Of a stretch of DNA of 16,966 nucleotides, positions 1 through 16,966 are shown piece by piece. Both the position numbers and the translations under genes were made by a program. Each line of letters begins with the position of its first letter. The stretch's first letter is position 1. Source of the stretch: a virus (lineage: Duplodnaviria; Heunggongvirae; Uroviricota; Caudoviricetes); IMG/VR virus record IMGVR_UViG_2703718855_000004. One strand, given 5' to 3'. The notes beneath the pieces are model-generated. The model did no database searches, had not been told where the DNA came from, and worked only from the letters and a program-made list of their open reading frames with translations.

Positions 1-279
1 TCAGTATCTCGATAAGCGCAGAGAAATGATGCAGTGGTGGGCGGATTGGCTTGATGAAAAAGTGGAGTAATCCGGACCGTACTTCTTTATCCAGGCATAA
101 AGGCTGTGGGTGGTGATATCGAGACGTGTTGCAACGCTGGCAACAGAATAACCGCGATCAACAACCTGTTTGACTGCTTCAGTTTTAAACTCTTCGGGAT
201 AACGCTTACCGCTCATGGGCACCTCTCTTTAAGCCATCTTAAATGACTCTGAGGTGTCTGTTAAACCCGTGGCGATTCA
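1..279 (-). mobile_element. IS3-family insertion sequence, 5' end only: terminal region plus OrfA N-terminal helix-turn-helix fragment (ORF 1..222)
   Basis: ORF 1..222 translates to MPMSGKRYPEEFKTEAVKQVVDRGYSVASVATRLDITTHSLYAWIKKYGPD..., the HTH N-terminus typical of IS3-family OrfA. After about codon 51 (near nt 70) the frame no longer looks like the family. Read on the minus strand, the sequence upstream of the ATG begins TGAATCGCCACGG at nt 279, an IS-end-like TG terminus. Confidence 0.55.
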
Positions 280-772
280 AAACTGCGTGTTACGTTCGCC
301 CTGGACTGTTGCGATCGTGAAGCCATAGACTGGGCCGCAAGCACGGGAGGTTACGATAAAGCGACAGTGCAGGATGTCATGTTAGGAGCGATAGAAAAAC
401 GCTTTGGCGATAAAGTACCGGAACAGTCCATCCAGTGGCTGACAGATAACGGTTCAGCGTATAGAGCGCATGAAACATGGCAGTTCGCCAGAGAGTTGAA
501 TCTGGAGCCCTGCACAACGGCAATCAGCAGTCCTCAGAGTAATGGAATGGCAGAAAGGTTCGTGAAAACGATGAAGGAAGACTACATCGCGTTCATGCCG
601 AAACCGAATGTAAGAACGGCATTGCATAATCTTGCAGTGGCGATCGAACATTACAATGAAAACCATCCGCACAGTGCGTTGGGTTATCGCTCTCCGCGAG
701 AATATCGACGTCAGCGGGTAACGTTAACTTAAGATACACCCCCTGTCTGGAAATAAGGGGGCAAGAACAATG
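280..772 (+). mobile_element. IS2-like (IS3 family) element, 3' portion: 5'-truncated transposase OrfB (C-terminal part of DDE core) plus right terminal inverted repeat
   Basis: In-frame translation from nt 280 (ORF track 367..732) gives ...[17 protein letters not shown]...[11 protein letters not shown]...[37 protein letters not shown], resembling the C-terminus of IS2 InsD. Downstream TGTCTGGAAATAAGGGGGCAAG resembles the IS2 right end. The N-terminal part with the first catalytic Asp is absent. Confidence 0.65.
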
Positions 773-773
773 A

Positions 774-1526
774 TCAGATTCCCTGGTGAGTAAGAATTTT
801 ACTTTCTGAACTGCTCTGAGAGTATTGACTTGGAGAAACACCAAAATAACGTCTAAATACATAAGTAAAGTATGAGACACTGGCATAACCACAGACCTTA
901 GCTACTTTACTAATAGGATAACAACGAGTGCTGAGTAAATATTCAGCCATTTGCATCCTCTCATCAAGTATGATCTTACTGAATGATACCCCCTCTTCTT
1001 TCAATTTCCTCTTTAGTAAACTTTCGCTGAGATATAATCTTGATGATATATCCTTAAGACGCCATGGTGCAGATAAATCCGTATGAATAATCGTTTTAAC
1101 TTTAGCCCCTGTGCTTTTCAAACATTCAAACAGAAATACTCCAAATTGTTTTTCAGAAGAAAATGCAGAGAGACATGTAAAAGCAATAGACTCATCAAAA
1201 ATTTCTATGTATTCAGCACAGTGATTAGCCCAACTAATTAATCCTTTAATTAAACTGAAGTCAGCAAAGTTTATTTTTAAATAAGATGGATATTCCCTAC
1301 AATCAGAAATATCCCTTAAGTTATTAGCTTTCAAATAGCGACTAATAAACTCAGCGCCAAAATCCGCCACTATCACTCTTTCAGGATATGTCAGGAAAAA
1401 ATCTCTAGAGCTAGAGTCGACAAGTACAGATGAACCTCTCTCCAGAAACACACTCTCTTTTCCGAAATAAACATCAAAGGACTCCAAAATCAATATAACT
1501 GAACATGTAGTTGCCATATCATCCAC
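774..1526 (-). CDS. AraC/XylS-family transcriptional regulator, YdeO/AppY/GadX-like
   Basis: 250-aa ORF. The C-terminus ...PWRLKDISSRLYLSESLLKRKLKEEGVSFSKIILDERMQMAEYLLSTRCYPISKVAKVCGYASVSYFTYVFRRYFGVSPSQY is the two-HTH AraC DNA-binding domain and aligns by eye with E. coli YdeO/AppY. The stop lies 2 nt from the IS2-like right end. Confidence 0.8.
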   Translation of the reverse strand: MDDMATTCSVILILESFDVYFGKESVFLERGSSVLVDSSSRDFFLTYPERVIVADFGAEFISRYLKANNLRDISDCREYPSYLKINFADFSLIKGLISWANHCAEYIEIFDESIAFTCLSAFSSEKQFGVFLFECLKSTGAKVKTIIHTDLSAPWRLKDISSRLYLSESLLKRKLKEEGVSFSKIILDERMQMAEYLLSTRCYPISKVAKVCGYASVSYFTYVFRRYFGVSPSQYSQSSSESKILTHQGI

Positions 1527-2101
1527 CCAACTTAACTGAAACCAGGATGAAGTATATGCATATAAAGTTCACTTTGCCAAACTTCAGTATAAAAAACCAC
1601 ATAAAAAATAGGGTGTGATAAAAAATACCGTAACAATAAAGCAAAGGATTATAAATTCCGTTACAGTTACAAATGATACTCAAGAAACAATTCCTTAGGA
1701 AAAACTTATTTACAGCCAATAAGTAAGACACTTATATGATATCAAGTTTTCATAAAACATAACTAGGCTAAATAGCTGCGCCTAATACCGCTACACTTTT
1801 GCCAGCCCATGTTTGCCTCCGGGTATTGACCCCTTCTCTACGCAACTTCAGTTCCCACCACCAACTTTGCGGCAGCTTTGTAGGATCAATGTCTAAAAGA
1901 ATAATGGTGACCGATAAGAAAACGACTGAATAACTGCAAATTTTCGCTCAAAACCTTCCTGTCAGATCCATAGCGAATCAAGTGCTGAATGTCACAGTAT
2001 CGAACAGAAAACAGTGACGATCTAACCCTTCAAGAATATTCTACGATTGTTCTGTTTAGGAAAAGCAAGGCGGGAAGTCGGGAGATAAGTCATTGATAAA
2101 G

Positions 2102-2163
2102 TGGCGGAGAGAGGGGGATTTGAACCCCCGGTAGAGTTGCCCCTACTCCGGTTTTCGAGACCG
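2102..2163 (-). tRNA. Partial tRNA-Ser(CGA): 3' 62 nt only (anticodon stem to CCA), an att-type remnant rather than a functional gene
   Basis: The minus strand reads CGGTCTCGAAAACCGGAGTAGGGGCAACTCTACCGGGGGTTCAAATCCCCCTCTCTCCGCCA. This matches the anticodon loop (CGA), long variable arm, T-arm and acceptor 3' end of E. coli serU-type tRNA-Ser. The 5' acceptor and D-arm sequence is absent (the adjacent sequence is unrelated). Confidence 0.8.
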
Positions 2164-2906
2164 ATGATACAGAGTCGAAAAATCAAAGAGTTAAAAATTT
2201 TTCTTGGAATAAATGTCTTTAAATCGTACACGAAAAATCAATGAATTACATAACATTAAAGAAGAATATTCCAAGCCTTCTTGAGGCTACCACCTGTTTT
2301 CAGGTGTCATTCAGACGTGATTTGCCCCAGATTGGGAAAGCACGCTTTTTTCTCAGCTATCGTCCTCTTATTTTGCCGTTACATTTCTTTTTGCACTCTA
2401 ATGATTAATTTACAATAATAATATCGGTAATTATTGAGTAATAATAAATTGATTATTGCAAATGTAATTTAATTCCATCTTAGCGTTATATTCCAATCTT
2501 TAATCTCCGCATGGAACAAGTTGCATGCGTGACTATATTAAGACAACTTATAACCACCAAAACATTTGCTTTGCAAGCAAAAACAGTGACCATTGACTCT
2601 AAGAAAATTCCGATCTATTGTTAGGGTCATCAAAGTTACTTAACAGTATTCCGAAATGAAAATACAAAGCAAGCTAATTGTCTTATTAAACATTATTATT
2701 GCATTTATATTATTTGAGCTTTTAGCTCAAAAATTTGGTTTGAGTACATTATTTTAAAGCAAGGTAAACAATATCGGGCACTCTAGTTTTTATAATTAAC
2801 AATTAAACGTCCATAAAATGTTATTTACTTTTCTTCGCTATTGTCACATCTTAATATAGTGGCTTACGCCACTCTACTTTCATCACATTTTGTACGTTTA
2901 TGTACT

Positions 2907-2938
2907 CGCCATGAAGCTCTTTCATGGCGATTTTTATT
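2907..2938 (+). terminator. Rho-independent terminator-like hairpin with no gene upstream
   Basis: CGCCATGAA-gctct-TTCATGGCG, a perfect 9-bp stem, followed by ATTTTTATT on the plus strand. It sits in AT-rich DNA with no ORF of 60 aa or more. Confidence 0.45.
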
Positions 2939-3021
2939 CTTAATCCAAGAACATACTCCCTATCTATAGCAAAATCACTTTTTGAACAAAAGAATAACGT
3001 ATTTAGGTAATCATTACGAAT

Positions 3022-3603
3022 TTACCCTATAGGTGCTACTGGCCATTCAATATCCTGTGCAGTTGACGTATCAACACGGTTCAGCAATACCCGATACTTT
3101 TTCCAGGCTTCCAGCAACAAGGTTTCTTCCTCCGTTGCGATTTCCAGATCCACAGCATCCTGAAGCGGCGCTATATGCTCACTGGCTACCTGCATCAGGC
3201 TGTTTTTTGTTTCTTCCACCTCCCGGATCCGGAACAGTTTTTCTGCTTCCGTATCCTTCACCCAGGCTGTGCCGTTCCACTTCTGAAACTCCCCTTCCGG
3301 GGATAACCAGGTAACATTTTCCGGTAATGAGCCGAGTTCAGAAATAAATAACGCGTCCCCTGATGCCACGTCATAAACTGTTTTACCCCGATGGTCTTCA
3401 ACAAGATGCCACGATGACTCATCACTGTTGAAAACAGCCACGAAGCCAGCCGGAATATCTGGCGGTGCAATATCGGTACTGTTTGCTGGCAGACCTGTAT
3501 GAGGCGGAATATATGCATCACCTTCACCAATAAATTCATTAGTTCCGGCCAGCAGATTATAAATTTTTATGGTCCGTGGTTGTTCACTCATTCTGAATGC
3601 CAT
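3022..3603 (-). CDS. tfa: Tail fiber assembly protein Tfa (lambda-type)
   Basis: 193-aa [47 protein letters not shown]... is collinear over its full length with lambda Tfa as I recall it. Confidence 0.9.
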
Positions 3604-3848
3604 TAACCAACACGGGCAGACTTCACCACATTCACCTCGCGGATGTAGTCGCTGCCCATCGCATTCATGATGGCCCGCTGAAAGGGCAGTGTTTCCCAGC
3701 GCCCTTCCTGGTATGCGGATTCTTTCGGGAGATAGTAATTAGCATCCGCCCATTCAACGGCGGTCTGTGGCTCCGGCCTGAACAGTGAGCGAAGCCCGGC
3801 GCGGACAAAATGCCGCAGCCTGTTAACCTGACTGTTCGATATATTCAC
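3603..3848 (-). pseudogene. Terminase large subunit (gpA) N-terminal fragment, about 81 codons, stop overlapping the tfa start
   Basis: [81 protein letters not shown] matches the first ~81 residues of lambda gpA, then stops. The stop and the tfa ATG overlap (TAATG). The rest of A and all head and tail genes are missing. Confidence 0.85.
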
Positions 3849-4368
3849 TCAGCAACCCCGGTATCAGTTCATCCAGCGCGGCTGCTTTGTTCATGGCTTT
3901 GATGATATCCCGTTTCAGGAAATCAACATGTCGGTTTTCCAGTTCCGGAAAACGCCGCTGCACCGACAGGGGGATCCCGTCGAGAATACTGGCAATTTCA
4001 CCTGCGATCCGCGACAACACGAAAGTACAGAATGCGGTTTCCACCACTTCAGCGGAGTCTCTGGCATTCTTCAGTTCCTGTGCGTCGGCCTGCGCACGCG
4101 TAAGTCGATGGCGTTCGTACTCAATAGTCCCTGGCTGGAGATCTGCCTCGCTGGCCTGCCGCAGTTCTTCAACCTCCCGGCGCAGCTTTTCGTTCTCAAT
4201 TTCAGCATCCCTTTCGGCATACCATTTTATGACGGCGGCAGAGTCATAAAGCACCTCATTACCCTTGCCACCGCCTCGCAGAACGGGCATTCCCTGTTCC
4301 TGCCAGTTCTGAATGGTACGGATACTCGCACCGAAAATGTCAGCCAGCTGCTTTTTGTTGACTTCCAT
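3823..4368 (-). CDS. nohD: Terminase small subunit Nu1 (lambda-type)
   Basis: 181-aa ORF MEVNKKQLADIFGASIRTIQNWQEQGMPVLRGGGKGNEVLYDSAAVIKWYAERD... is full-length and collinear with lambda Nu1. Its 3' end overlaps the gpA fragment start as in lambda. The symbol is chosen by analogy with K-12 cryptic-prophage naming. Confidence 0.85.
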   Translation of the reverse strand: MEVNKKQLADIFGASIRTIQNWQEQGMPVLRGGGKGNEVLYDSAAVIKWYAERDAEIENEKLRREVEELRQASEADLQPGTIEYERHRLTRAQADAQELKNARDSAEVVETAFCTFVLSRIAGEIASILDGIPLSVQRRFPELENRHVDFLKRDIIKAMNKAAALDELIPGLLSEYIEQSG

Positions 4369-4600
4369 TGTTCATTCCACGGACAAAAACAGAGAAAGGA
4401 AACGACAGAGGCCAAAAAGCTCGCTTTCAGCACCTGTCGCTTCCTTTCTTTTCAGAGGGTATTTTAAATAAAAACATTAAGTTATGACGAAGAAGAACGG
4501 AAACGCCTTAAACCGGAAAATTTTCATAAATAGCGAAAACCCGCGAGGTCGCCGCCCCGTAACCTGTCGGATCGCCGGAAAGGACCCGCAAAATGATAAT
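4369..4600. other. cos site (cosB, cosN, cosQ side), lambda-type; 12-nt cohesive-end sequence at 4546..4557
   Basis: The reverse complement of 4369..4577 reads ...CGACAGGTTACG|GGGCGGCGACCTCGCGGGTTTTCGCTATTTATGAAAATTTTCCGGTTTAAGGCG...TTTGTCCGTGGAATGAACA, matching the joined lambda right end and left end upstream of Nu1. Confidence 0.75.
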
Positions 4601-4756
4601 AATTATCATCTACATGTCACAACGTGCATCTACGCCATCAAACCACGTCAAATAATCAATTATGACGCAGGTATCGTATTAATTGATCTGCATCAACTTA
4701 ACGTAAAAACAACTTCAGACAATACAAATCAGCGACACTGAATACGGGGCAACCTC

Positions 4757-4951
4757 ATGTCAACGAAGAACAGAACCCGCAGAACAACAACCCGCAACAT
4801 CCGCTTTCCTAACCAAATGATTGAACAAATTAACATCGCTCTTGAGCAAAAAGGGTCCGGGAATTTCTCAGCCTGGGTCATTGAAGCCTGCCGTCGGAGA
4901 CTAACGTCAGAAAAGAGAGCATATACATCAATTAAAAGTGATGAAGAATGA
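4757..4951 (+). CDS. ylcI: Small conserved prophage protein (YlcI-like, DUF3950); possible ribbon-helix-helix fold
   Basis: 64-aa ORF MSTKNRTRRTTTRNIRFPNQMIEQINIALEQKGSGNFSAWVIEACRRRL... with a beta-strand, helix, G-x-S-x-N turn, helix pattern. Confidence 0.6.
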   Translation: MSTKNRTRRTTTRNIRFPNQMIEQINIALEQKGSGNFSAWVIEACRRRLTSEKRAYTSIKSDEE

Positions 4952-5115
4952 ACATCCCGCGTTCTTCCCTCCGAACAGGACGATATTGTAAATTCACTTA
5001 ATTACGAGGGCATTGCAGTAATTGAGTTGCAGTTTTACCACTTTCCTGACAGTGACAGACTGCGTGTTGGCTCTGTCACAGGCTAAATAGTTTGAATGAT
5101 TAGCAGTTATGGTGA

Positions 5116-5322
5116 TCAGTCAACCACCAGGGAATAATCCTTCATATTATTATCGTGCTTCACCAACGCTGCCTCAATTGCTCTGAATGCTTCCAGAGAC
5201 ACCTTATGTTCTATACATGCAATTACAACATCAGGGTAACTCATAGAAATGGTGCTATTAAGCATATTTTTTACACGAATCAGATCCACGGAGGGATCAT
5301 CAGCAGATTGTTCTTTATTCAT
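5116..5322 (-). CDS. ybcW: Small hypothetical prophage protein (YbcW-like)
   Basis: 68-aa [71 protein letters not shown], at the position expected in the DLP12-type gene order. Confidence 0.6.
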
Positions 5323-5607
5323 TTTGTCGCTCCATGCGCTTGCTCTTCATCTAGCGGTTAAAATATTACTTCAAATCTTTCTGTATGAAGATTTGAGCAC
5401 GTTGGCCTTACATACATCTGTCGGTTGTATTTCCCTCCAGAATGCCAGCAGGACCGCACTTTGTTACGCAACCAATACTATTAAGTGAAAACATTCCTAA
5501 TATTTGACATAAATCATCAACAAAACACAAAGAGGTCAGACCAGATTGAAACGATAAAAACGATAATGCAAACTACGCGCCCTCGTATCACATGGAAGGT
5601 TTTACCA

Positions 5608-6018
5608 ATGGCTCAGGTTGCCATTTTTAAAGAAATATTCGATCAAGTGCGAAAAGATTTAAACTGTGAATTGTTTTATTCTGAACTAAAACGTCACAAC
5701 GTCTCACATTATATTTACTATCTAGCCACAGATAATATTCACATCGTGTTAGAAAACGATAACACCGTGTTAATAAAAGGACTTAAAAAGGTTGTAAATG
5801 TTAAATTCTCAAGAAACACGCATCTTATAGAAACGTCCTATGATAGGTTGAAATCAAGAGAAATCACATTTCAGCAATACAGGGAAAATCTTGCTAAAGC
5901 AGGAGTTTTCCGATGGGTTACAAATATCCATGAACATAAAAGATATTACTATACCTTTGATAATTCATTACTATTTACTGAGAGCATTCAGAACACTACA
6001 CAAATCTTTCCACGCTAA
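5608..6018 (+). CDS. ybcV: Hypothetical prophage protein (YbcV-like, DUF1398)
   Basis: ORF track gives 5485..6018. I chose the internal start [47 protein letters not shown]... (136 aa), the length I recall for YbcV. The start is uncertain; 5485 and 5566 are alternatives. Confidence 0.65.
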
Positions 6019-6308
6019 ATCATAACGTCCGGTTTCTTCCGTGTCAGCACCGGGGCGTTGGCATAATGTAATACGTGTACGCGCTAAACCCTGTGTGCAT
6101 CGTTTTTAATTATTCCCGGACACTCCCGCAGAGAAGTTCCCCGTCAGGGCTGTGGACATAGTTAATCCGGGAATACAATGACGATTCATCGCACCTGACA
6201 TACATTAATAAATATTAACAATATGAAATTTCAACTCATTGTTTAGGGTTTGTTTAATTTTCTACACATACGATTCTGCGAACTTCAAAAAGCATCGGGA
6301 ATAACACC

Positions 6309-6602
6309 ATGAAAAAAATGCTACTCGCTACTGCGCTGGCCCTGCTTATTACAGGATGTGCTCAACAGACGTTTACTGTTCAAAACAAACCGGCAGCAGT
6401 AGCACCAAAGGAAACCATCACCCATCATTTCTTCGTTTCTGGAATTGGGCAGAAGAAAACTGTCGATGCAGCCAAAATTTGTGGCGGCGCAGAAAATGTT
6501 GTTAAAACAGAAACCCAGCAAACATTCGTAAATGGATTGCTCGGTTTTATTACTTTAGGCATTTATACTCCGCTGGAAGCGCGTGTGTATTGCTCACAAT
6601 AA
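6309..6602 (+). CDS. borD: Bor outer-membrane lipoprotein (lambda bor-type, serum-resistance moron)
   Basis: 97-aa ORF MKKMLLATALALLITGCAQQTFTVQNKPAAVAPKETITHHFFVSGIGQKK... with lipobox ITGC. It matches lambda Bor as recalled and lies opposite to the lysis genes as in lambda. Confidence 0.9.
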   Translation: MKKMLLATALALLITGCAQQTFTVQNKPAAVAPKETITHHFFVSGIGQKKTVDAAKICGGAENVVKTETQQTFVNGLLGFITLGIYTPLEARVYCSQ

Positions 6603-6610
6603 TTGCATGA

Positions 6611-6632
6611 GTTGCCCATCGATATGGGCAAC
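6611..6632. terminator. Palindromic hairpin between convergent bor and Rz
   Basis: GTTGCCCAT-cgat-ATGGGCAAC, a perfect 9-bp stem, lies between the bor stop (6602) and the Rz stop (6634). There is no strong U-tract on either side. Confidence 0.4.
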
Positions 6633-6633
6633 T

Positions 6634-7095
6634 CTATCTGCACTGCTCATTAATATACTTCTGGGTTCCTTCCAGTTGTTTTTGCATAGTGATCAGCCTC
6701 TCTCTGAGGGTGAAATAATCCCGTTCAGCGGTGTCTGCCAGTCGGGGGGAGGCTGCATTATCCACGCCGGAGGCGGTGGTGGCTTCACGCACTGACTGAC
6801 AGACTGCTTTGATGTGCAACCGACGACGACCTGCGGCAACATCATCACGCAGAGCATCATTTTCAGCTTTCGCATCAGCTAACTCCTTCGTGTATTTTGC
6901 ATCGAGCGCAGCAACATCACGCTGACGCATCTGCATGTCAGTAATTGCCGCGTTCGCCAGCTTCAGTTCTCTGGCATTTTTGTCGCGCTGGGCTTTGTAG
7001 GTAATGGCGTTATCACGGTAATGATTAACAGCCCATGACAGGTAGACGATGATGCAGATAACCAGAGCGGAGATAATCGCGGTTACTCTGTTCAT
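6634..7095 (-). CDS. rzpD: i-spanin Rz (inner-membrane spanin subunit)
   Basis: 153-aa product [55 protein letters not shown]... has an N-terminal TM segment and coiled coil. The start was chosen at MNRV, 4 codons inside the ORF-track start. It overlaps the endolysin 3' end. Confidence 0.85.
6693..6875 (-). CDS. rzoD: o-spanin Rz1 lipoprotein, embedded in the +1 frame of Rz
   Basis: 60-aa [63 protein letters not shown], with lipobox VVGC and a proline-rich body, lies entirely inside Rz in another frame. Confidence 0.8.
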
Positions 7096-7589
7096 TGCTG
7101 ACCCCACAAACAGATTTCACGCTCAATCTCACGACGAGTCATGAGACCTTTCCATTGCTTACCGCCAGCATATGTCCAGCGACGTAGCTGATCACATGCG
7201 CCTTTGATATCGCCCTGGTTTATTTTGCGAAGAAGCGTCGATGTTCTGAAATTGCCAGCACCCACGTTGTAAACGAATGAGTAAAGAGCGCCGCGCGTTG
7301 TTTCCGGTATATCGACTTTGATGTACGGGTTAATTTGTCTGGCGACAGTGGCAAGGTCTTTATTCAAGAGTGCTTTGCATTCTGCTTTGGTATACGTTTT
7401 ACCGAGCATGATGTCTTTTCCGGTGTGTCCGTGACATACAGTCCATACGCCAACGATATCTTTGTATGGTACGTAGCTGACACCTTCCAGACCATCGTTA
7501 CCACTTGGGCCAGTAATTAACACTGATGCTATAGCAATTGCTCCGCCACCAATAGCAGCAGCAACGGCTTTTCGTAATGATGGAGGCAT
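7092..7589 (-). CDS. rrrD: Endolysin (lysozyme R) with N-terminal signal-anchor-release-like hydrophobic segment, phage 21-type
   Basis: 165-aa [78 protein letters not shown]... has a Gly/Ala-rich N-terminal hydrophobic stretch and a lysozyme domain. Its start overlaps the holin stop. Confidence 0.9.
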
Positions 7590-7804
7590 TATTCACCTCT
7601 CGCAGCCTTGCGCTTATCTTCTTTAATCTTGAAATAAAGGTTTGTCAGGTACGTCAGCAGGCCAAATACCAGGCTACCCAGCACACCTATTGCTGCCCAC
7701 TGTGAGGGCGTGACTTTATCGAGCAGCTGTAAAAACCAGTAACCGGCACTACCTGCTGAGGTGCCATAGGCGACACCCGTTGTTAACTTATCCATGGATT
7801 TCAT
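7589..7804 (-). CDS. essD: Holin, phage 21 S-type (pinholin class), with dual-start motif M-K-S-M
   Basis: 71-aa product [71 protein letters not shown] with two TM segments. The ORF track extends upstream to 7849; I chose the MKSM start. Confidence 0.85.
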
Positions 7805-7930
7805 AACCCCACCTCGCAGACAAAGCGGGTGTAAATTGAGGGAATACAACGTATCGCAAAAAAGCAGAAACGTAACAGACTCGGAGTCAGTGAATAACTC
7901 AGGTATTGGGTTATCAGCTAATATCGAGAC

Positions 7931-7965
7931 TCAAAAAATGGAAAAACCCGCTCGACGGCGGGTTT
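7931..7965 (-). terminator. Rho-independent terminator upstream of the holin; candidate tR' of the late operon
   Basis: The minus strand reads AAACCCGCCGTCGAGCGGGTTT followed by TTCCATTTTTTG (stem ACCCGC/GCGGGT). It lies about 130 nt upstream of the holin start, where lambdoid phages place tR' between pR'/qut and S. Confidence 0.45.
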
Positions 7966-8390
7966 AAGCTGTGTGACGAAGTAACCACTCTTAACAGCAT
8001 AACCAATTTTTTACGTACGTAAACCACTAAATGATATTTGCGAGAATGCTACCGAGTATTGAAAACACCACTACAAATACATAAGCAAATCTCAACAAAT
8101 AACCAACAAATAATTTCCAGCGTTATTTTAGCTGGTTTAAATTGAATCTTCAAATTATAGAGCACTTATAAATAACAGCCATTAATATAAATTGGCTAAT
8201 AGATTTATTTTTATTCAGCCAAGAGCCATGAATAGGATTCGATAGAAAAAGTTCAGATAAAAATAGAGATCTACTTCACAAATCAAATGAGAAACCAAAA
8301 CTTACATCTTGAAATAATCACATTGATTAGATGAATATTTATCGCGCAGTGACATCATTTTTTAATAATAGTTCAAAAAAAGGGCTCACG

Positions 8391-9473
8391 ATGAAAAAAT
8401 TAACAGTGGCAATTTCTGCTGTAGCTGCATCAGTACTGATGGCGATGTCTGCTCAGGCAGCTGAAATTTATAATAAAGACAGTAACAAGCTGGATCTGTA
8501 CGGGAAAGTTAATGCTAAGCACTACTTCTCCTCTAATGATGCAGATGATGGTGATACTACTTATGCCCGTCTTGGCTTCAAAGGTGAAACCCAAATCAAC
8601 GATCAACTGACTGGTTTCGGTCAGTGGGAATATGAATTCAAAGGCAACCGCGCTGAATCTCAAGGTTCCTCCAAAGATAAAACCCGTCTTGCCTTCGCTG
8701 GCCTGAAATTCGGTGACTACGGCTCCATCGATTATGGCCGTAACTACGGTGTAGCATACGATATTGGTGCATGGACCGACGTTCTGCCAGAATTCGGTGG
8801 CGATACCTGGACCCAAACAGATGTATTCATGACTGGTCGCACCACAGGTGTTGCAACTTATCGTAACAATGACTTCTTTGGTCTGGTTGATGGTCTGAAC
8901 TTTGCTGCTCAGTATCAGGGTAAAAATGACCGCACTGACGTAACTGAAGCTAATGGTGATGGTTTCGGTTTCTCCACTACTTATGAGTATGAAGGATTCG
9001 GTGTAGGTGCAACCTATGCTAAATCTGACCGCACTAATAATCAGGTTATCTACGGTAACAACAGCCTGAATGCATCTGGTCAAAATGCTGAAGTATGGGC
9101 AGCTGGTCTGAAATATGATGCGAACAACATCTATCTGGCTACCACCTATTCTGAAACCCAGAACATGACTGTTTTTGGTAATAACCATATTGCCAACAAA
9201 GCACAAAACTTCGAAGTAGTTGCACAATATCAGTTCGACTTCGGTCTGCGTCCGTCCGTTGCTTACCTGCAATCTAAAGGAAAAGACTTGGGTGCGTGGG
9301 GTGATCAGGACCTGGTTGAATATATTGATGTAGGTGCAACCTATTACTTCAACAAAAATATGTCCACTTTTGTTGATTACAAAATCAACCTGATTGATAA
9401 GAGCGATTTCACGAAAGCATCTGGCGTTGCTACCGATGATATCGTTGCTGTAGGTATGGTTTACCAGTTCTAA
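8391..9473 (+). CDS. nmpC: General porin of the OmpC/OmpF/PhoE family, prophage-encoded (NmpC/Lc-type), apparently intact
   Basis: 360-aa product [23 protein letters not shown]|[23 protein letters not shown]... has a signal peptide, the porin N-terminal motif, and a C-terminal ...GMVYQF with terminal Phe typical of OM beta-barrels. The start was chosen at 8391, not the ORF-track 8331. Confidence 0.9.
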
Positions 9474-10630: not shown

Positions 10631-10917
10631 GCCTTAATAACCCCCTCTTTCAGCCAGATAACCTGTGTTCTCGCCATACCTTCCAGCGCGCATTCTTTTG
10701 CATATGCAGCATCGACAAAATGTGTGCGGCGGTCGATTTCGTCGTGGCAGGCAGAACATGCAATGGTGGCAATCAGGTCTGGCGGTTTCGTACCGGTGCC
10801 GCACAATCCAGTCAGCCGGATATGTGCCAGTACAGACGTTTCAGGGTTGCCATTACATACGCCAGGGATTCTTACCTGGCATTCCCGACCACGCGCTGCT
10901 TTTCTCAAATCAGCCAT
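10627..10917 (-). CDS. ybcO: Nin-region protein YbcO (DUF1364, Cys-rich putative nuclease)
   Basis: 96-aa product [64 protein letters not shown]... (start 13 codons inside the ORF-track start). It overlaps rusA by 4 nt. Confidence 0.85.
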
Positions 10918-11072
10918 GACTCCTCCTTGCTGCCAGTCGCAACCATTTTTTATCAACCAGGCTGGCGGTATATCCGAGCAGTGTTGGTATTTCGGAAGGC
11001 TTCAGCTCCGGTTTACGCTTACGACGATTTGGTACTCTGTAGATGTGTCCGTTCATGACACGAATAAGCGGT
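10902..11072 (-). CDS. ninE: NinE protein
   Basis: My translation: [56 protein letters not shown] (56 aa). Its 3' end overlaps the ybcO start by 16 nt. Confidence 0.75.
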
Positions 11073-11079
11073 GTAGCCA

Positions 11080-11535
11080 TTACGCCTCCTGTTTGTCGCG
11101 GAGCTGCTGGAACTCGCAGCTCTGCGGAATAGTCAGGTGGCAGCCAATATTCACCGCCCAGGCTTCAACCTTACACAGGAAGATATACATCTCTCCGGTA
11201 TCAAGATCGGAGGTATGGCGTAACGACTGGATAGTAGTGATTTCGCCGGTTACGACATCAACCAGGTCCTTGGTTTCATAACCGAGGTATGTGTGTTTGA
11301 GAGCATCTTTTACCCATGCTGCGGTAGCGAACGATTTCCCCCTGCTGATGAGGTATTCACTGATTTCGCTGTACCACATGTGGCTGAGTGCATTCTGGGA
11401 AAGACTGCGTTTCTCACGCCACGGTTTAAGCACCATGCGAAAGCATTTTCCGTCCTCCAGATAAGGCTGGATCTGCTGGCCGATAGCGGTGAAGTTACCG
11501 CGATGCAGTTTGATGCCATCTTGTGGTAGGTTCAC
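11080..11535 (-). CDS. ybcN: NinB-family recombination protein (YbcN-like)
   Basis: 151-aa ORF containing ...[20 protein letters not shown]..., comparable to the R-x-RSLDQN motif of lambda NinB. It heads the ninE-ybcO-rusA cluster. Confidence 0.8.
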
Positions 11536-11725
11536 GCTTCACCTCCGCAGAGGTCAGACGCTGGATGCAAAAAATCGCAGGTGCATTTCTGCATCTGTGA
11601 AGGGAGAAGAGAGTTTGGATTGTATGTGCGCATAAACGTCCCCGTTTAGCGCAGAAGTCACCGGAGTTGTTCAAGCTCCGATGACTTTATTATTACGAAT
11701 TGATTTTACAAAATCAAAAGGTATG

Positions 11726-12178
11726 TTAGTGACGCGGGTCTGTTATTATGCGAGAAGGGTTTCCGTATAAAACAAGGACCTTACTTCCTTGAGTAAATAA
11801 CGGATCTTTGCCTTGAACAATGGTCATTAAATTCCCATTCTCAGTTTCGACAACATATTCCATGCCTGTTTGTTTTGTTGCTGAAGATTCGATTGCTGCC
11901 CCGGCAATACCACCAATGACTGCACCACCAACGGCACCAACGATATTAGAACGAACTCCCCCACCAAGCGCAGAACCAGCGGTTGCCCCCACGGCAGCCC
12001 CAGCAGTCCCGCCTAACGCGGAAGTCCCACTGATATCAACCCCCCTAGCACTAATAACTGTACCAGCGATAGTTCGATTAACCATGCCCACAGAGCCAAC
12101 AGAATAACTATTTGGCGATATATTTTGTGCGCATCCAACCAACACTAAGAGTGGAGCAATTACGAATAATCGCTTCAT
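11726..12178 (-). CDS. Outer-membrane lipoprotein with glycine-zipper domain, SlyB/Pcp-like
   Basis: 150 aa. Signal peptide with lipobox LVGC, then a long Gly/Ala zipper (GGTAGAAVGATAGSALGGGVRSNIVGAVGGAVIGGIAGAAI), then a C-terminal segment GMEYVVETENGNLMTIVQGKDPLFTQGSKVLVLYGNPSRI that aligns by eye with the E. coli SlyB C-terminus. The start overlaps the upstream gene's stop (ATGA). Confidence 0.8.
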   Translation of the reverse strand: MKRLFVIAPLLVLVGCAQNISPNSYSVGSVGMVNRTIAGTVISARGVDISGTSALGGTAGAAVGATAGSALGGGVRSNIVGAVGGAVIGGIAGAAIESSATKQTGMEYVVETENGNLMTIVQGKDPLFTQGSKVLVLYGNPSRIITDPRH

Positions 12179-12735
12179 TTAGCTACCCTAACAGGAAACA
12201 TTGGACGAGAAAGATCAACACTTTCTAATGCTTGCAAGAACTGCGTTATGTTGTTTTGCACCGCGCGATTAACAGATTCGCGTGCTCGAACAATACCGTA
12301 GAATGCGTAACTGGCTGGAACAGTACCGGTAGACTCAATATCCTGCGTATATATAATATCACCATTCGCACGGTTGATTATTTCATACCTTGCAATTGCT
12401 TTAGTTGTCATTGAAACACCAAAAGCAGGAACGTCAAGAGCCAACACTTTAACATTTAAGCTAACCGTATTTGGTGAACTATCACGAAAAATAGTCATTC
12501 GGTCGAGTGCTTCCTGCAAAGATTCACGCCAAATTGGAGTTATAGCCTCCATACCAGCAGTGATATCCCCTTTCTGCTCATCTGGACGAGCAAGTGATAC
12601 CGTTAATGACTTAATTTCAGCATCTATTTTTTTCTGGCTAACTCCCACGTTAGGTGTTGAAAAATTCAATGGTGGCACACTAGCGCAACCTGTTAAAGAA
12701 CCAATAATCATGGCTAATAATATTATCTTCTTCAT
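12175..12735 (-). CDS. Uncharacterized lipoprotein, first gene of a two-gene lipoprotein operon
   Basis: 186 aa. MKKIILLAMIIGSLTGC|ASVPP... has lipobox LTGC and a Shine-Dalgarno-like AAGG 8 nt upstream. I recognise no family. It is translationally coupled to the SlyB-like gene. Confidence 0.75.
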   Translation of the reverse strand: MKKIILLAMIIGSLTGCASVPPLNFSTPNVGVSQKKIDAEIKSLTVSLARPDEQKGDITAGMEAITPIWRESLQEALDRMTIFRDSSPNTVSLNVKVLALDVPAFGVSMTTKAIARYEIINRANGDIIYTQDIESTGTVPASYAFYGIVRARESVNRAVQNNITQFLQALESVDLSRPMFPVRVAK

Positions 12736-12991
12736 AAATTTACCTTATTGTTATAACCAAAGGAATTATAAAGTAAAAAAGTTCACTATCACTAGCCATT
12801 AACGACATCAATTTCAGAGAAACATGGTACTCATTTCCACAAATTTGACACAAGTCATTTTCACCTACATATTCCATCATACTTGATGCATATGTTATTG
12901 AAGCCTCTATCCTATCCGTTCATAATAGCAATAGTTACCCGGGTGATAGTACCTCTATGATTACTCGTCTTTCTGATTGATTGGATTAAAT

Positions 12992-13183
12992 ATGCGCGCC
13001 AAAATTTATCAACTTTCGTTATGGATATTTATTTCGTTTCTAGCGATCTATGCCTTTATTATCTATAAAGGTTCTTATATTGGAGTAGCATTGCATCAAA
13101 TTGCTTGGATCATCATTATTGCCTCTGGCTTGATTGCTAGGCTAACTAAACCAAAGCAAAAACCAATTTCGTCCAATAATTAG
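12992..13183 (+). CDS. Small hydrophobic ORF with two predicted TM helices (hypothetical)
   Basis: 63 aa from the ATG at 12992: MRAKIYQLSLWIFISFLAIYAFIIYKGSYIGVALHQIAWIIIIASGLIARLTKPKQKPISSNN. The ORF track starts at 12977 on a non-ATG codon. There is no convincing RBS, and the surrounding DNA is AT-rich and divergent from the lipoprotein operon. Confidence 0.3.
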   Translation: MRAKIYQLSLWIFISFLAIYAFIIYKGSYIGVALHQIAWIIIIASGLIARLTKPKQKPISSNN

Positions 13184-13340
13184 ACATGTATTAAAAAAAT
13201 GATATTTTTATGTACATAGTCTATTGAAAATTGCCGCGATAAAATGCCAACACCCGCTTCATCGCGGCACTCTGGCGACACTCCTTGAAAATCAGATTCG
13301 TGCTCACCTTTCCTTCCCGTTCTTCCCTGGTAGCGAACCG

Positions 13341-13789
13341 GTAATCATCCGATCTGCGTTACCGAGTGGATGGATGAATGCCGCCGCGAACCATTCAAAA
13401 CCCGCGAAGGCAGAGAAATTACGGGGCCGTGGCAGTCGCATCCCAAACGGATGTTACGGCATAAAGCCATGATTCAGTGTGCCCGTCTGGCCTTCGGATT
13501 TGCTGGTATCTATGACAAGGATGAAGCCGAGCGCATTGTCGAAAATACCGCATACACCGCAGAACGTCAGCCGGAACGCGACATTACTCCGGTTAACGAT
13601 GAAACCATGCAGGAGATTAACACTCTGCTGATTGCCCTGGACAAAACATGGGATGACGACTTATTGCCGCTCTGTTCCCAGATATTTCGCCGCGACATTC
13701 GCGCATCGTCAGAACTGACACAGGCCGAAGCAGTGAAAGCTCTTGGATTCCTGAAACAGAAAGCCACTGAGCAGAAGGTGGCAGCATGA
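13341..13789 (+). pseudogene. bet: bet (Red-beta recombinase), 5'-truncated; only the C-terminal ~149 codons remain
   Basis: From about 13341 the frame reads (G)NHPICVTEWMDECRREPFKTREGREITGPWQSHPKRMLRHKAMIQCARLAFGFAGIYDKDEAERIVENTAYTAERQ...KVAA, matching the C-terminal part of lambda Bet. There is an in-frame stop at 13331..13333 and unrelated sequence upstream. Confidence 0.85.
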
Positions 13790-14466
13790 CACCGGACATT
13801 ATCCTGCAGCGTACCGGGATCGACGTGAGAGCTGTCGAACAGGGGGATGATGCATGGCACAAATTACGGCTCGGCGTCATCACCGCTTCAGAAGTTCACA
13901 ACGTGATAGCCAAGCCCCGCTCAGGAAAGAAGTGGCCTGACATGAAAATGTCCTACTTCCACACCCTGCTGGCTGAGGTTTGCACCGGTGTGGCTCCGGA
14001 AGTTAATGCTAAGGCGCTGGCATGGGGAAAACAGTACGAGAACGACGCCAGAACCCTGTTTGAATTCACTTCCGGCGTGAATGTTACTGAATCCCCGATC
14101 ATCTATCGCGACGAAAGTATGCGCACCGCCTGCTCTCCCGATGGTTTATGCAGTGACGGCAATGGCCTTGAGCTGAAATGCCCGTTTACCTCCCGGGATT
14201 TCATGAAGTTCCGGCTCGGTGGTTTCGAGGCCATAAAGTCGGCTTACATGGCCCAGGTGCAGTACAGCATGTGGGTGACACGAAAAGATGCCTGGTACTT
14301 TGCCAACTATGACCCGCGTATGAAGCGTGAAGGACTGCATTATGTCGTGGTTGAGCGGGATGAAAAGTACATGGCGAGTTTTGACGAGATGGTGCCGGTG
14401 TTCATCGAAAAAATGGACGAGGCACTGGCTGAAATTGGTTTTGTATTTGGGGAGCAATGGCGATGA
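13786..14466 (+). CDS. exo: Lambda exonuclease (Red-alpha), full length
   Basis: 226-aa [68 protein letters not shown]...GEQWR is collinear with lambda Exo over its full length, with only a few substitutions from the recalled sequence. The start overlaps the bet stop (ATGA). Confidence 0.95.
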
Positions 14467-15548
14467 CGCATCCTCACGATAATATCCGGGTAGGCGCAAT
14501 CACTTTCGTCTACTCCGTTAACCTTTATATAAGAAACAATGGATATTACTGCTACAGGGACCCAAGGACGGGTAAAGAGTTTGGATTAGGCCGAGACAGG
14601 CGAATCGCAATCACTGAAGCTATACAGGCCAACATTGAGTTATTTTCAGGACACAAACACAAGCCTCTGACAGCGAGAATCAACAGTGATAATTCCGTTA
14701 CGTTACATTCATGGCTTGATCGCTACGAAAAAATCCTGGCCAGCAGAGGAATCAAGCAGAAGACACTCATAAATTACATGAGCAAAATTAAAGCAATAAG
14801 GAGGGGTCTGCCTGATGCTCCACTTGAAGACATCACCACAAAAGAAATTGCGGCAATGCTCAATGGATACATAGACGAGGGAAAGGCGGCATCAGCCAAG
14901 TTAATCAGATCAACACTGAGCGATGCATTCCGAGAGGCTATGGCTGAAGGCCATATAACAACAAACCCGGTCGCAGCCACTCGCGCTGCAAAATCAGAGG
15001 TAAGGAGATCAAGACTTACGGCTGACGAATACCTGAAAATTTATCAAGCAGCAGAATCATCACCATGTTGGCTTAGACTTGCAATGGAACTGGCTGTTGT
15101 TACCGGGCAGCGAGTTGGTGATTTATGCGAAATGAAGTGGTCTGATATCGTAGATGGATATCTTTATGTCGAGCAAAGCAAAACAGGCGTAAAAATTGCC
15201 ATCCCAACAACATTGCATGTTGATGCTCTCGGGATATCAATGAAGGAAACACTTGATAAATGCAAAAAGATTCTTGGCGGAGAAACCATAATTGCATCTA
15301 CTCGTCGTGAACCGCTTTCATCCGGCACAGTATCAAGGTATTTTATGCGCGCACGAAAAGCATCAGGTCTCTCCTTCGAAGGGGATCCGCCAACCTTTCA
15401 CGAGTTGCGCAGTTTGTCTGCAAGACTCTATGAGAAGCAGATAAGCGATAAATTTGCTCAACATCTTCTCGGGCATAAGTCGGACACCATGGCATCACAG
15501 TATCGTGATGACAGAGGCAGGGAGTGGGACAAAATTGAAATCAAATAA
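14457..15548 (+). CDS. int: Lambda-type integrase (tyrosine recombinase) with replaced N-terminus: 22 codons matching the start of lambda orf60a are fused in frame to Int from about residue 16
   Basis: 363-aa [25 protein letters not shown]|[27 protein letters not shown]... After the junction (nt ~14520) it is near-identical to lambda Int and retains the catalytic residues (R in VTGQRVGD, K in SKTGVK, H-x-x-R in [10 protein letters not shown] and Y in [11 protein letters not shown]). The start overlaps the exo stop. Confidence 0.88.
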
Positions 15549-15640
15549 TGATTTTATTTTGACTGATAGTGACCTGTTCGTTGCAACAAATTGATAAGCA
15601 ATGCTTTTTTATAATGCCAACTTAGTATAAAAAAGCAGGC
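15549..15640. other. attL prophage-host junction (B-O-P'); core O at 15622..15636, P' arm on the int side
   Basis: The reverse complement reads GCCTGCTTTTTTATACTAAGTTGGCATTATAAAAAAGCATTGCTTATCAATTTGTTGCAACGAACAGGTCACTATCAGTCAAAATAAAATCATTATTTGA: the lambda 15-bp core GCTTTTTTATACTAA with the P' arm on one side and the bacterial B half-site (GCCTGC) on the ybhC side. Confidence 0.88.
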
Positions 15641-15682: not shown

Positions 15683-16966
15683 GTGAACACATTTTCAGTT
15701 TCCCGTCTGGCGCTGGCATTGGCTTTTGGCGTGACGCTGACCGCCTGTAGCTCAACCCCGCCCGATCAACGTCCTTCTGATCAAACCGCGCCTGGTACCT
15801 CTTCTCGCCCGATTCTGTCGGCAAAAGAAGCGCAGAATTTCGATGCTCAACACTATTTTGCATCCCTGACACCAGGTGCTGCAGCGTGGAATCCTTCCCC
15901 GATTACCCTGCCTGCGCAACCTGACTTTGTTGTCGGCCCGGCGGGCACTCAAGGTGTAACGCATACCACGATTCAGGCGGCGGTAGATGCGGCAATTATC
16001 AAGCGTACCAACAAGCGCCAGTATATTGCCGTGATGCCTGGTGAGTATCAGGGAACGGTATATGTCCCTGCCGCTCCGGGTGGAATTACTCTGTACGGTA
16101 CAGGTGAAAAACCGATTGATGTGAAGATTGGGCTTTCCCTTGATGGTGGCATGAGCCCTGCCGACTGGCGTCACGACGTCAACCCGCGCGGCAAATATAT
16201 GCCAGGTAAACCAGCGTGGTATATGTACGATAGCTGCCAGAGCAAACGCAGCGACAGTATCGGTGTTCTCTGCTCTGCGGTCTTCTGGTCACAAAACAAT
16301 GGCCTGCAACTGCAAAATCTGACCATCGAAAACACGCTGGGCGATAGCGTAGATGCAGGTAACCATCCGGCGGTGGCACTGCGTACTGATGGTGACCAGG
16401 TACAGATTAACAACGTTAACATTCTCGGTCGTCAGAACACCTTCTTTGTCACCAACAGCGGTGTGCAGAACCGTCTGGAAACAAATCGTCAGCCGCGTAC
16501 GCTGGTGACCAACAGCTACATTGAAGGGGATGTGGATATCGTTTCTGGTCGCGGCGCAGTGGTGTTCGATAACACCGAATTCCGCGTGGTGAACTCACGT
16601 ACTCAGCAAGAAGCGTATGTGTTTGCACCGGCTACGCTGTCCAACATTTACTACGGTTTCCTCGCCGTAAACAGCCGTTTCAATGCTTTCGGTGATGGTG
16701 TGGCGCAACTGGGCCGCTCGCTGGATGTTGATGCCAATACCAACGGTCAGGTGGTGATCCGTGATAGCGCCATCAACGAAGGTTTTAACACGGCTAAACC
16801 GTGGGCCGATGCGGTGATCTCTAATCGTCCGTTTGCGGGTAATACCGGCAGCGTAGATGATAACGACGAAATACAGCGCAATCTGAATGACACTAACTAC
16901 AACCGCATGTGGGAATACAATAACCGCGGCGTGGGTAGTAAAGTGGTTGCAGAGGCGAAGAAGTAA
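15683..16966 (+). CDS. ybhC: YbhC, outer-membrane lipoprotein of the pectinesterase-like family (acyl-CoA thioesterase); host gene flanking the lambda attachment site
   Basis: 427-aa ORF from a GTG start. MNTFSVSRLALALAFGVTLTACSSTPPDQ... has lipobox LTAC and right-handed beta-helix-type repeats. It lies immediately outside the attL B arm. Confidence 0.88.
   Translation: MNTFSVSRLALALAFGVTLTACSSTPPDQRPSDQTAPGTSSRPILSAKEAQNFDAQHYFASLTPGAAAWNPSPITLPAQPDFVVGPAGTQGVTHTTIQAAVDAAIIKRTNKRQYIAVMPGEYQGTVYVPAAPGGITLYGTGEKPIDVKIGLSLDGGMSPADWRHDVNPRGKYMPGKPAWYMYDSCQSKRSDSIGVLCSAVFWSQNNGLQLQNLTIENTLGDSVDAGNHPAVALRTDGDQVQINNVNILGRQNTFFVTNSGVQNRLETNRQPRTLVTNSYIEGDVDIVSGRGAVVFDNTEFRVVNSRTQQEAYVFAPATLSNIYYGFLAVNSRFNAFGDGVAQLGRSLDVDANTNGQVVIRDSAINEGFNTAKPWADAVISNRPFAGNTGSVDDNDEIQRNLNDTNYNRMWEYNNRGVGSKVVAEAKK

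Follow-up and report, generated by a model that had tools for sequence, protein, structure and literature searches.

An orphan 62-nt piece of the tRNA-Ser gene serU sits inside a lambda-site prophage of E. coli, where it is most probably a non-functional molecular fossil carried as passive cargo, marking neither a border of the element nor a rearrangement in this genome. The window (the whole 16,966-nt stretch of DNA analyzed here) is 100% identical to E. coli VG48B2 (NZ_CP128584.1, positions 1382101-1399066, reverse strand). The fragment and the parts of the module around it, together with the lambda attachment core at the other end of the element, are as follows.

14 bp left of the window to 70, plus strand: 3'-terminal 84 nt of an IntS-type integrase gene, immediately following the lambda attP arm
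1-279, minus strand: IS3-family orfA remnant (ISEhe3-like; Pfam HTH_Tnp_1), overlapping the last 70 nt of the IntS-type remnant
367-732, plus strand: IS3-family transposase remnant with the integrase core, N-terminus missing (Pfam rve_3 and rve; "partial" in RefSeq)
774-1517, minus strand: gene for an AraC-family regulator of 247 aa (Pfam HTH_AraC and HTH_18)
1518-1768, unstranded: 251-bp region upstream of the AraC gene, conserved together with the module
1769-1823, unstranded: terminal ~52-55 bp of an IS630-family element, outer end at 1769, internally truncated at the joint 1823/1824
1824-2101, unstranded: 278 bp of backbone DNA from the E. coli chromosome: the spacer between yodB and serU, directly downstream of serU, which in both K-12 and the source strain adjoins an intact serU
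2102-2163, minus strand: orphan 3' part of serU (nt 29-90), an att core copy of the attR type
2164-3021, unstranded: phage-side DNA separating tfa from the att scar, assigned to a right arm of the serU type (by similarity to EBJ003 and ev099)
3022-3603, minus strand: tfa (tail fibre assembly; Pfam Caudo_TAP), last of the late genes, with a terminase-large remnant joined at 3604/3605
15622-15636, minus strand: lambda att core (attL) beside ybhC, exactly GCTTTTTTATACTAA

The serU fragment and its host flank

The minus strand of window positions 2102-2163 reads CGGTCTCGAAAACCGGAGTAGGGGCAACTCTACCGGGGGTTCAAATCCCCCTCTCTCCGCCA and is identical at 62/62 positions to nucleotides 29-90 of K-12 serU (90 nt, tRNA-Ser, anticodon CGA), a match far above chance level. 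The initial annotation had described an exact copy of the 3' part of a serU-type tRNA without its 5' half, and alignment agrees on both counts: the copy has no mismatch, and the 28 nt upstream of it share one matching position with the 5' part of serU. ARAGORN called 0 tRNA genes in the window, Rfam at gathering score gave no tRNA match there, and a permissive Rfam scan returned sub-threshold, unrelated matches only. Folded with its upstream 28 nt, the 62-nt piece can form neither an acceptor stem nor a D arm. A functional tRNA gene (a serU paralogue) and any other known RNA were ruled out by the ARAGORN and Rfam results, the missing cloverleaf and the presence of nt 29-90 alone.

The fragment has the features of one end of an att duplication. 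It is an exact 3' tRNA copy that starts in the anticodon arm, and homology to the serU locus runs 278 bp further left of the tRNA 3' end, through the yodB-serU intergenic spacer, up to the truncation at 1823/1824. Because this native spacer is joined to the 62-nt core, the feature is the attR junction of a serU-integrated prophage. An intact target tRNA (attL) with a cognate integrase was not found at the other end of the element, which instead carries the lambda attL core beside ybhC and a truncated lambda-type int, with no serU-type partner. The 340-bp stretch of core and flank (window 1824-2163) aligns to K-12 ungapped at 97.4% identity, and at up to 99.1% to other strains; it has a match in 5423/5426 complete E. 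coli genomes, mostly at the native locus annotated as tRNA-Ser.

The same scar occurs in prophages that reside at serU. In the record of prophage SerU-LTIIb (KU052038), the identical 62 nt are annotated as a pseudo-tRNA-Ser at the yodB-side end. EBJ003 carries a lambdoid prophage at native serU whose right end has the order tfa, spacer, serU', flank and is 97.3% identical to window 1824-3605; the phage-side segment 2164-3021 is likewise 97.3% identical to this right end, and 98.8% identical to phage ev099. These cases bear out the att duplication by a tRNA-Ser integrator that had been proposed from the sequence alone.

An intact serU gene, for which the initial annotation had advised a search elsewhere in the genome, lies 1.275 Mb from the orphan copy in VG48B2 (record 2672328-2672417), at an unoccupied locus with the order yodB-serU-mtfA. 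With serU intact and unoccupied, no rearrangement has taken place at serU in this genome. Moreover, the native 340 bp of VG48B2 differ from the copy in the window at 10/340 positions, and the chromosome of that strain was not the source of the window's flank.

The prophage at attλ and its decay

The lambda attL reported at ybhC was confirmed as an exact core at 15622-15636. We located an attR core matching at 14/15 positions, 225-239 bp left of window position 1 (14762-14776 of the extracted VG48B2 locus). The ~225 bp that follow this core align to the attP arm of ev099, the whole alignment being 94% identical; in the genome annotation, the end of ybhB lies 330 bp to the left of the window and ybhC occupies window 15683-16966. 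The 15-bp lambda core is therefore found at both ends and between the expected ybhC and ybhB flanks, so that the prophage represents a simple occupancy of attλ. This overturns two statements made earlier about the locus: attR and ybhB are present just to the left, and the lambda b-region, thought to be missing, is the very region in which the serU fragment sits. The initial annotation had also set against its own interpretation a simple, intact prophage with attR immediately beyond the window; attR does lie there, but the prophage is heavily deleted rather than intact.

The prophage is collinear with ev099, a phage with its own integrase, excisionase and attP core (lambda-type int-xis-attP), and stands three deletions apart from it. 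The first joins terminase-large' to tfa at 3604/3605, where collinearity with ev099 breaks at 23121|944 and ~22 kb of head and tail genes are lost. The second joins ren' to recT' near 13343-13354, with loss of immunity and replication genes (cI/cro/O/P). The third has removed xis and the first 41 nt of int, leaving a DUF1317'-int' fusion at window 14457-15548; the fusion is in-frame, encodes 363 aa with a lambda-type integrase part and is labelled "DUF1317 family protein" in RefSeq. On this gene content, the prophage is predicted to be able neither to excise nor to replicate, and it is a decayed, immobilized and deleted descendant of an ev099-like phage that integrated normally at attλ. The same attλ-site arrangement was found in other strains too.

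Several further features of the prophage were observed. A nin-region stretch (window 10716-13246) has no ev099 match and holds two hypothetical ORFs (11726-12178 and 12175-12735, minus strand). An intact nmpC/ompD-like porin gene (8331-9473, plus strand; ompC in RefSeq) lies between the Q-like antiterminator and the lysis genes; ev099 has a porin gene at the same place, whereas the corresponding nmpC of K-12 DLP12 is interrupted. The Q-lysis-cos-nohD segment (window 3604-9177), common to ev099, is 96.7% identical to DLP12 (25-5599 of the extracted K-12 stretch), and in both DLP12 and the window prophage a truncated terminase-large gene (aaaD) is joined to tfa at nearly the same place. We rejected DLP12 as a relative of the serU-bearing part: no serU fragment lies near appY/tfaX in K-12, and DLP12 matches the window from 3604 on, plus tfaD, only. 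The sole Rfam hit at gathering score in the window is IS009 (218 bits; 3062-3260, minus strand), which falls wholly inside the tfa CDS and has its K-12 counterpart in the tfaX remnant region; this Rfam family may model a prophage gene fragment instead of an sRNA.

One module in phages and at three chromosomal loci

The b-region and tfa (window 1-3605) are 98.5-99.5% identical to three phage records, namely ev099 (NC_049953, Radostvirus), mEp332 (PV340541) and PhiR70_1 (PV340577). Given this match, the scar came in with the phage. The lambda-type map of ev099 runs tail fibre, tfa, serU', flank, AraC, IS remnants, attP, int, xis; in all three phages, host backbone is contiguous with the att junction within the phage genome, as expected of captured host DNA. 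One of the carriers, the lambdoid phage mEp332, forms plaques and has lambda immunity (PMC3442831).

At the left end of the module, window 1-74 matches the int genes of HK620 and CUS-3, and ISEhe3 orfA was also matched in phage records. The 84-nt end of a KplE1/HK620/CUS-3-like intS is a relic of an earlier integration module. No thrW-type att relic was found beside this IntS stub in the window. The AraC-family protein is, by BLASTP, 99.2% identical to the copy in CP-933H (Sp1) of O157:H7 and 29% identical to AppY. CP-933H is reported to encode PatE, an AraC-like regulator and activator of acid resistance (PMC3681947), and the gene in the window is probably patE; the assignment combines this secondary citation with the 99.2% identity to the sole AraC-family gene annotated in the Sp1 stretch examined. 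The upstream region of the gene contains one promoter-like site (1580-1551, minus strand, 10/12 consensus match), in a region that shows no excess of such sites over shuffles.

The IS630 stub matches 49/52 positions at the end of an IS630-family copy carried by plasmid pJNE23-001_1; the matched stretch takes in the final 30 nt of the transposase CDS. The terminal inverted repeat of the plasmid copy is TAAAT(G/A)GCTGCGC, and the terminal repeat of the stub, TAAATAGCTGCGC, matches both ends of this complete copy. Since the host flank abuts the truncated interior of the IS630 element and not an IS end, the joint 1823/1824 is of the illegitimate or deletion type rather than a product of transposition. 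An IS630 insertion site at this joint was ruled out on the same geometry, in which 1769 is the outer end of the IS and the flank is met by the cut interior; the TA with which the flank begins is probably a coincidence.

Of 5426 genomes, 535 contain at least 80% of window 1300-2163, and the copies we compared occupy two chromosomal loci besides attλ. At thrW, O157:H7 strain Z1615 matches window 296-2164 at 99.4% within Sp1 (CP-933H); this copy lacks window 1-295 and lies beside a 46-nt copy of thrW and the P4-like Sp2. The 46-nt stretch (6448-6493 of the extracted Z1615 sequence) is an exact copy of the thrW 3' end between the Sp1 patE module and the Sp2 P4-like integrase, and serves Sp1 and Sp2, which lie in tandem, as a common att site. 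At argW, in the four genomes examined (STEC409, NCTC9064, C7 and 2013C-3264), homology to the window begins at position -13 and the left end of the module continues into a full-length intS beside tRNA-Arg. Integrases of the IntS (KplE1) type target argW, according to two reports (PMC3509656, PMC2951348). In the attλ phages intS is reduced to its final 84 nt, so this form of the module must descend from one that carried intS. In STEC409, IS1 cuts the argW module at the equivalent of window 1723 and is followed by yadM-yadC fimbrial genes (7424-8140 of the extracted stretch); the usual location of these genes is far from argW, and their presence here hints at an IS1-mediated rearrangement in STEC409.

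The joint 1823/1824 is common to all copies, which points to a single capture event. We propose that an ancestral lambdoid phage would have integrated into serU, making the attR junction, and that this junction with 278 bp of adjacent chromosome would have been copied from the chromosome into a phage genome by illegitimate recombination, either through aberrant excision of the specialized-transduction type or through recombination between a phage and a resident serU prophage plus flank. The conserved module (IntS 3' stub, two IS3-family remnants, patE-like AraC gene, IS630 stub, serU flank and serU') may then have been carried on as cargo while the neighbouring integration machinery was exchanged, potentially giving rise to the form with full intS at argW, the form with the 84-nt intS stub and lambda-type attP-int in attλ phages, and the truncated copy at thrW in O157:H7 Sp1. 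The present joint may be a secondary deletion and not the original capture joint; in a sample of the ~535 module-bearing genomes, inspected by locus, we found no intermediate with a longer flank or a full IS630 copy.

Nothing in the comparison of module copies singles out the tRNA-derived core. Across nine copies, it has 3 substitutions in 62 nt, plus boundary changes, against ~7 variable sites in the 278 nt of flank, and on these counts constraint on the core does not appear visibly stronger than on the flank. A consensus scan found no promoter-like site on the minus strand within ~280 nt upstream of the fragment, and no excess over shuffles. As the core is no better conserved than its flank, has no upstream promoter and cannot form a cloverleaf, it is best regarded as an inert fossil, a lack of function that we deduce from a small set of module copies.

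Alternative readings and comparison with known systems

To the right of the core, homology between loci ends at 2163-2166 in every locus compared, and three different arms follow. The tfa-type arm is found in the window, ev099, NCTC9064 and EBJ003 (at native serU), a GIY-YIG/pinE arm with an invertible tail fibre in O157 Sp1, SZQ1 and C7, and an espJ-tccP arm in 2013C-3264. In addition, phages of Klebsiella, Citrobacter and E. coli contain attP-like matches, 77-84 nt long, that stop at this boundary too (2163-2165). In KSC1031, the GIY-YIG/pinE arm belongs to an ssrA prophage and has no serU core. There, ~20 nt before the arm (~5000-5025 of the extracted stretch) resemble the serU anticodon arm with one anticodon change, CGGTTTTTGAGACCGGTCCG, and may represent a short attP-like remnant from an ancestor that targeted serU.

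Three unrelated arms on one module, all breaking at the core boundary, raise the question of whether the scar is still usable, either as a secondary attachment site or as a homology patch through which serU-type and module-bearing phages swap right arms. In a variant of this reading, module-bearing phages recombine with the serU locus itself, which fits the fossil origin and adds a present-day role to it. The stops of the attP-like matches point the same way; so does the anticodon stem-loop, which is kept in the 62-nt core except for its first base and in which such integrases usually cross over. The espJ-tccP arm is also of the kind carried by Sp14 (CP-933U), which is integrated at serU between yodB and tRNA-Ser(cga) and encodes EspJ and TccP (PMC8065619, PMC8190617). 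Nevertheless, we hold a usable site to be unlikely. A break at the core boundary would be expected from any recombination at a serU-type junction, whether integrase-mediated at the core or homologous in the 340-bp patch, and does not discriminate between the readings. Furthermore, the core of module copies gathers substitutions, the window encodes no serU-type integrase and the GIY-YIG arm also occurs at ssrA without a serU core. Informative SNPs in the flank are few, too sparse to place crossovers or to tell site-specific from homologous arm exchange.

A broader form of this idea, that the orphan core and its 278-bp flank constitute a portable recombination site for right-arm swaps between phages with different integration sites, is in our view rather unlikely. 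If true, the site would serve as a secondary att for serU-specific integrases or as a homology patch to every serU attR junction, it would move tail-fibre, effector or moron cassettes such as espJ-tccP, and it would explain how one module has at least three arms at three chromosomal loci.

The initial annotation had called the element chimeric, meaning that two prophages recombined here or that a rearrangement, possibly IS-mediated, joined a serU island border to the lambda-site prophage. The element is indeed chimeric in an ancient, evolutionary sense, but we consider either event in this genome very improbable. IS remnants do lie near the fragment (window 1-732 and 1769-1823), and the orphan copy and native serU of VG48B2 form inverted 340-bp repeats 1.275 Mb apart, which makes an inversion conceivable and could, by inference only, support one. 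However, neither lambda att core is missing, ybhB and ybhC flank the element as expected, and the genome retains an intact, unoccupied native serU; these features rule out a local rearrangement or a serU island border. The whole arrangement, IS remnants included, also recurs in the phage records and at the same site in other strains, and the flank differs from the strain's own at 10 positions.

Expression of the fragment as a tRNA-half-like small RNA, or as a decoy for tRNA-processing or tRNA-modifying enzymes or tRNA-targeting nucleases, is extremely improbable, for although the fragment keeps T and variable arms capable of local folding and has an MFE below that of shuffles (z = -2.7), low folding energy is expected of any partial tRNA sequence, no promoter-like site precedes the fragment in the region scanned, the native serU promoter and 5' half are absent, other module copies have substitutions in stems and no RNA family reaches threshold.

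Partial tRNA copies at prophage ends and pickup of host DNA at prophage borders are textbook phenomena, and the 62-nt serU scar itself was already annotated in one record (KU052038). The presence of a serU attR, its host flank and an intS stub within the patE cassette of CP-933H and ev099/mEp332-type phages appears to be unstated in the literature searched. Read as an inherited fossil, the fragment shows the b-region of a viable lambdoid lineage to preserve layered relics of integration-site switching, in which a serU attR with flank and an argW-type intS stub accompany a working lambda attP-int. At the sequence level, this is unusually direct evidence of two processes that as a rule are merely deduced: the capture of host DNA at the border of a prophage, and the repeated replacement of the integration module. 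The cargo kept through these replacements would include PatE, reported to be a regulator of acid resistance (PMC3681947). For annotation, the consequence is that the tRNA half is a harmless inherited scar and no sign of a genome rearrangement or a serU island; orphan tRNA fragments alone are insufficient for calling island or prophage borders.

Among known systems, the closest are the prophages at serU. SerU-LTIIb (KU052038) and Sp14/CP-933U share with the window the same 62 nt, the same inner boundary and the yodB-side spacer. In these prophages the scar is the true right border at serU and an intact serU lies at the other end, whereas the scar in the window is internal to an attλ prophage, loses the link to yodB after 278 bp and lacks both a partner attL and a serU-type integrase. 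The patE region of CP-933H (Sp1) resembles the window at 99.4% over the IS3 remnant, AraC gene, IS630 stub, flank and serU', but is located at thrW, lacks window 1-295 and has the GIY-YIG/pinE arm beyond the core.

The cryptic prophages of K-12 at argU (DLP12), thrW (CP4-6) and argW (KplE1) likewise have partial 3' tRNA copies that result from integration by tyrosine recombinases. These pseudo-tRNA remnants mark the real ends of a resident element at its cognate tRNA locus, unlike the scar in the window, which lies inside an element that uses another att site. A parallel for the capture itself is provided by established lambda genetics: in the λbio and λgal phages that arise by aberrant excision, as in the module described here, att-adjacent host DNA is joined non-homologously to phage DNA. 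The module differs from them in that only 278 bp of non-coding host DNA survive and in that its carriers seem complete, judging from the gene content of ev099, with mEp332 forming plaques. It differs also in its history, since the event is ancient, has been inherited by many phages and adjoins an integration module that has since been replaced.
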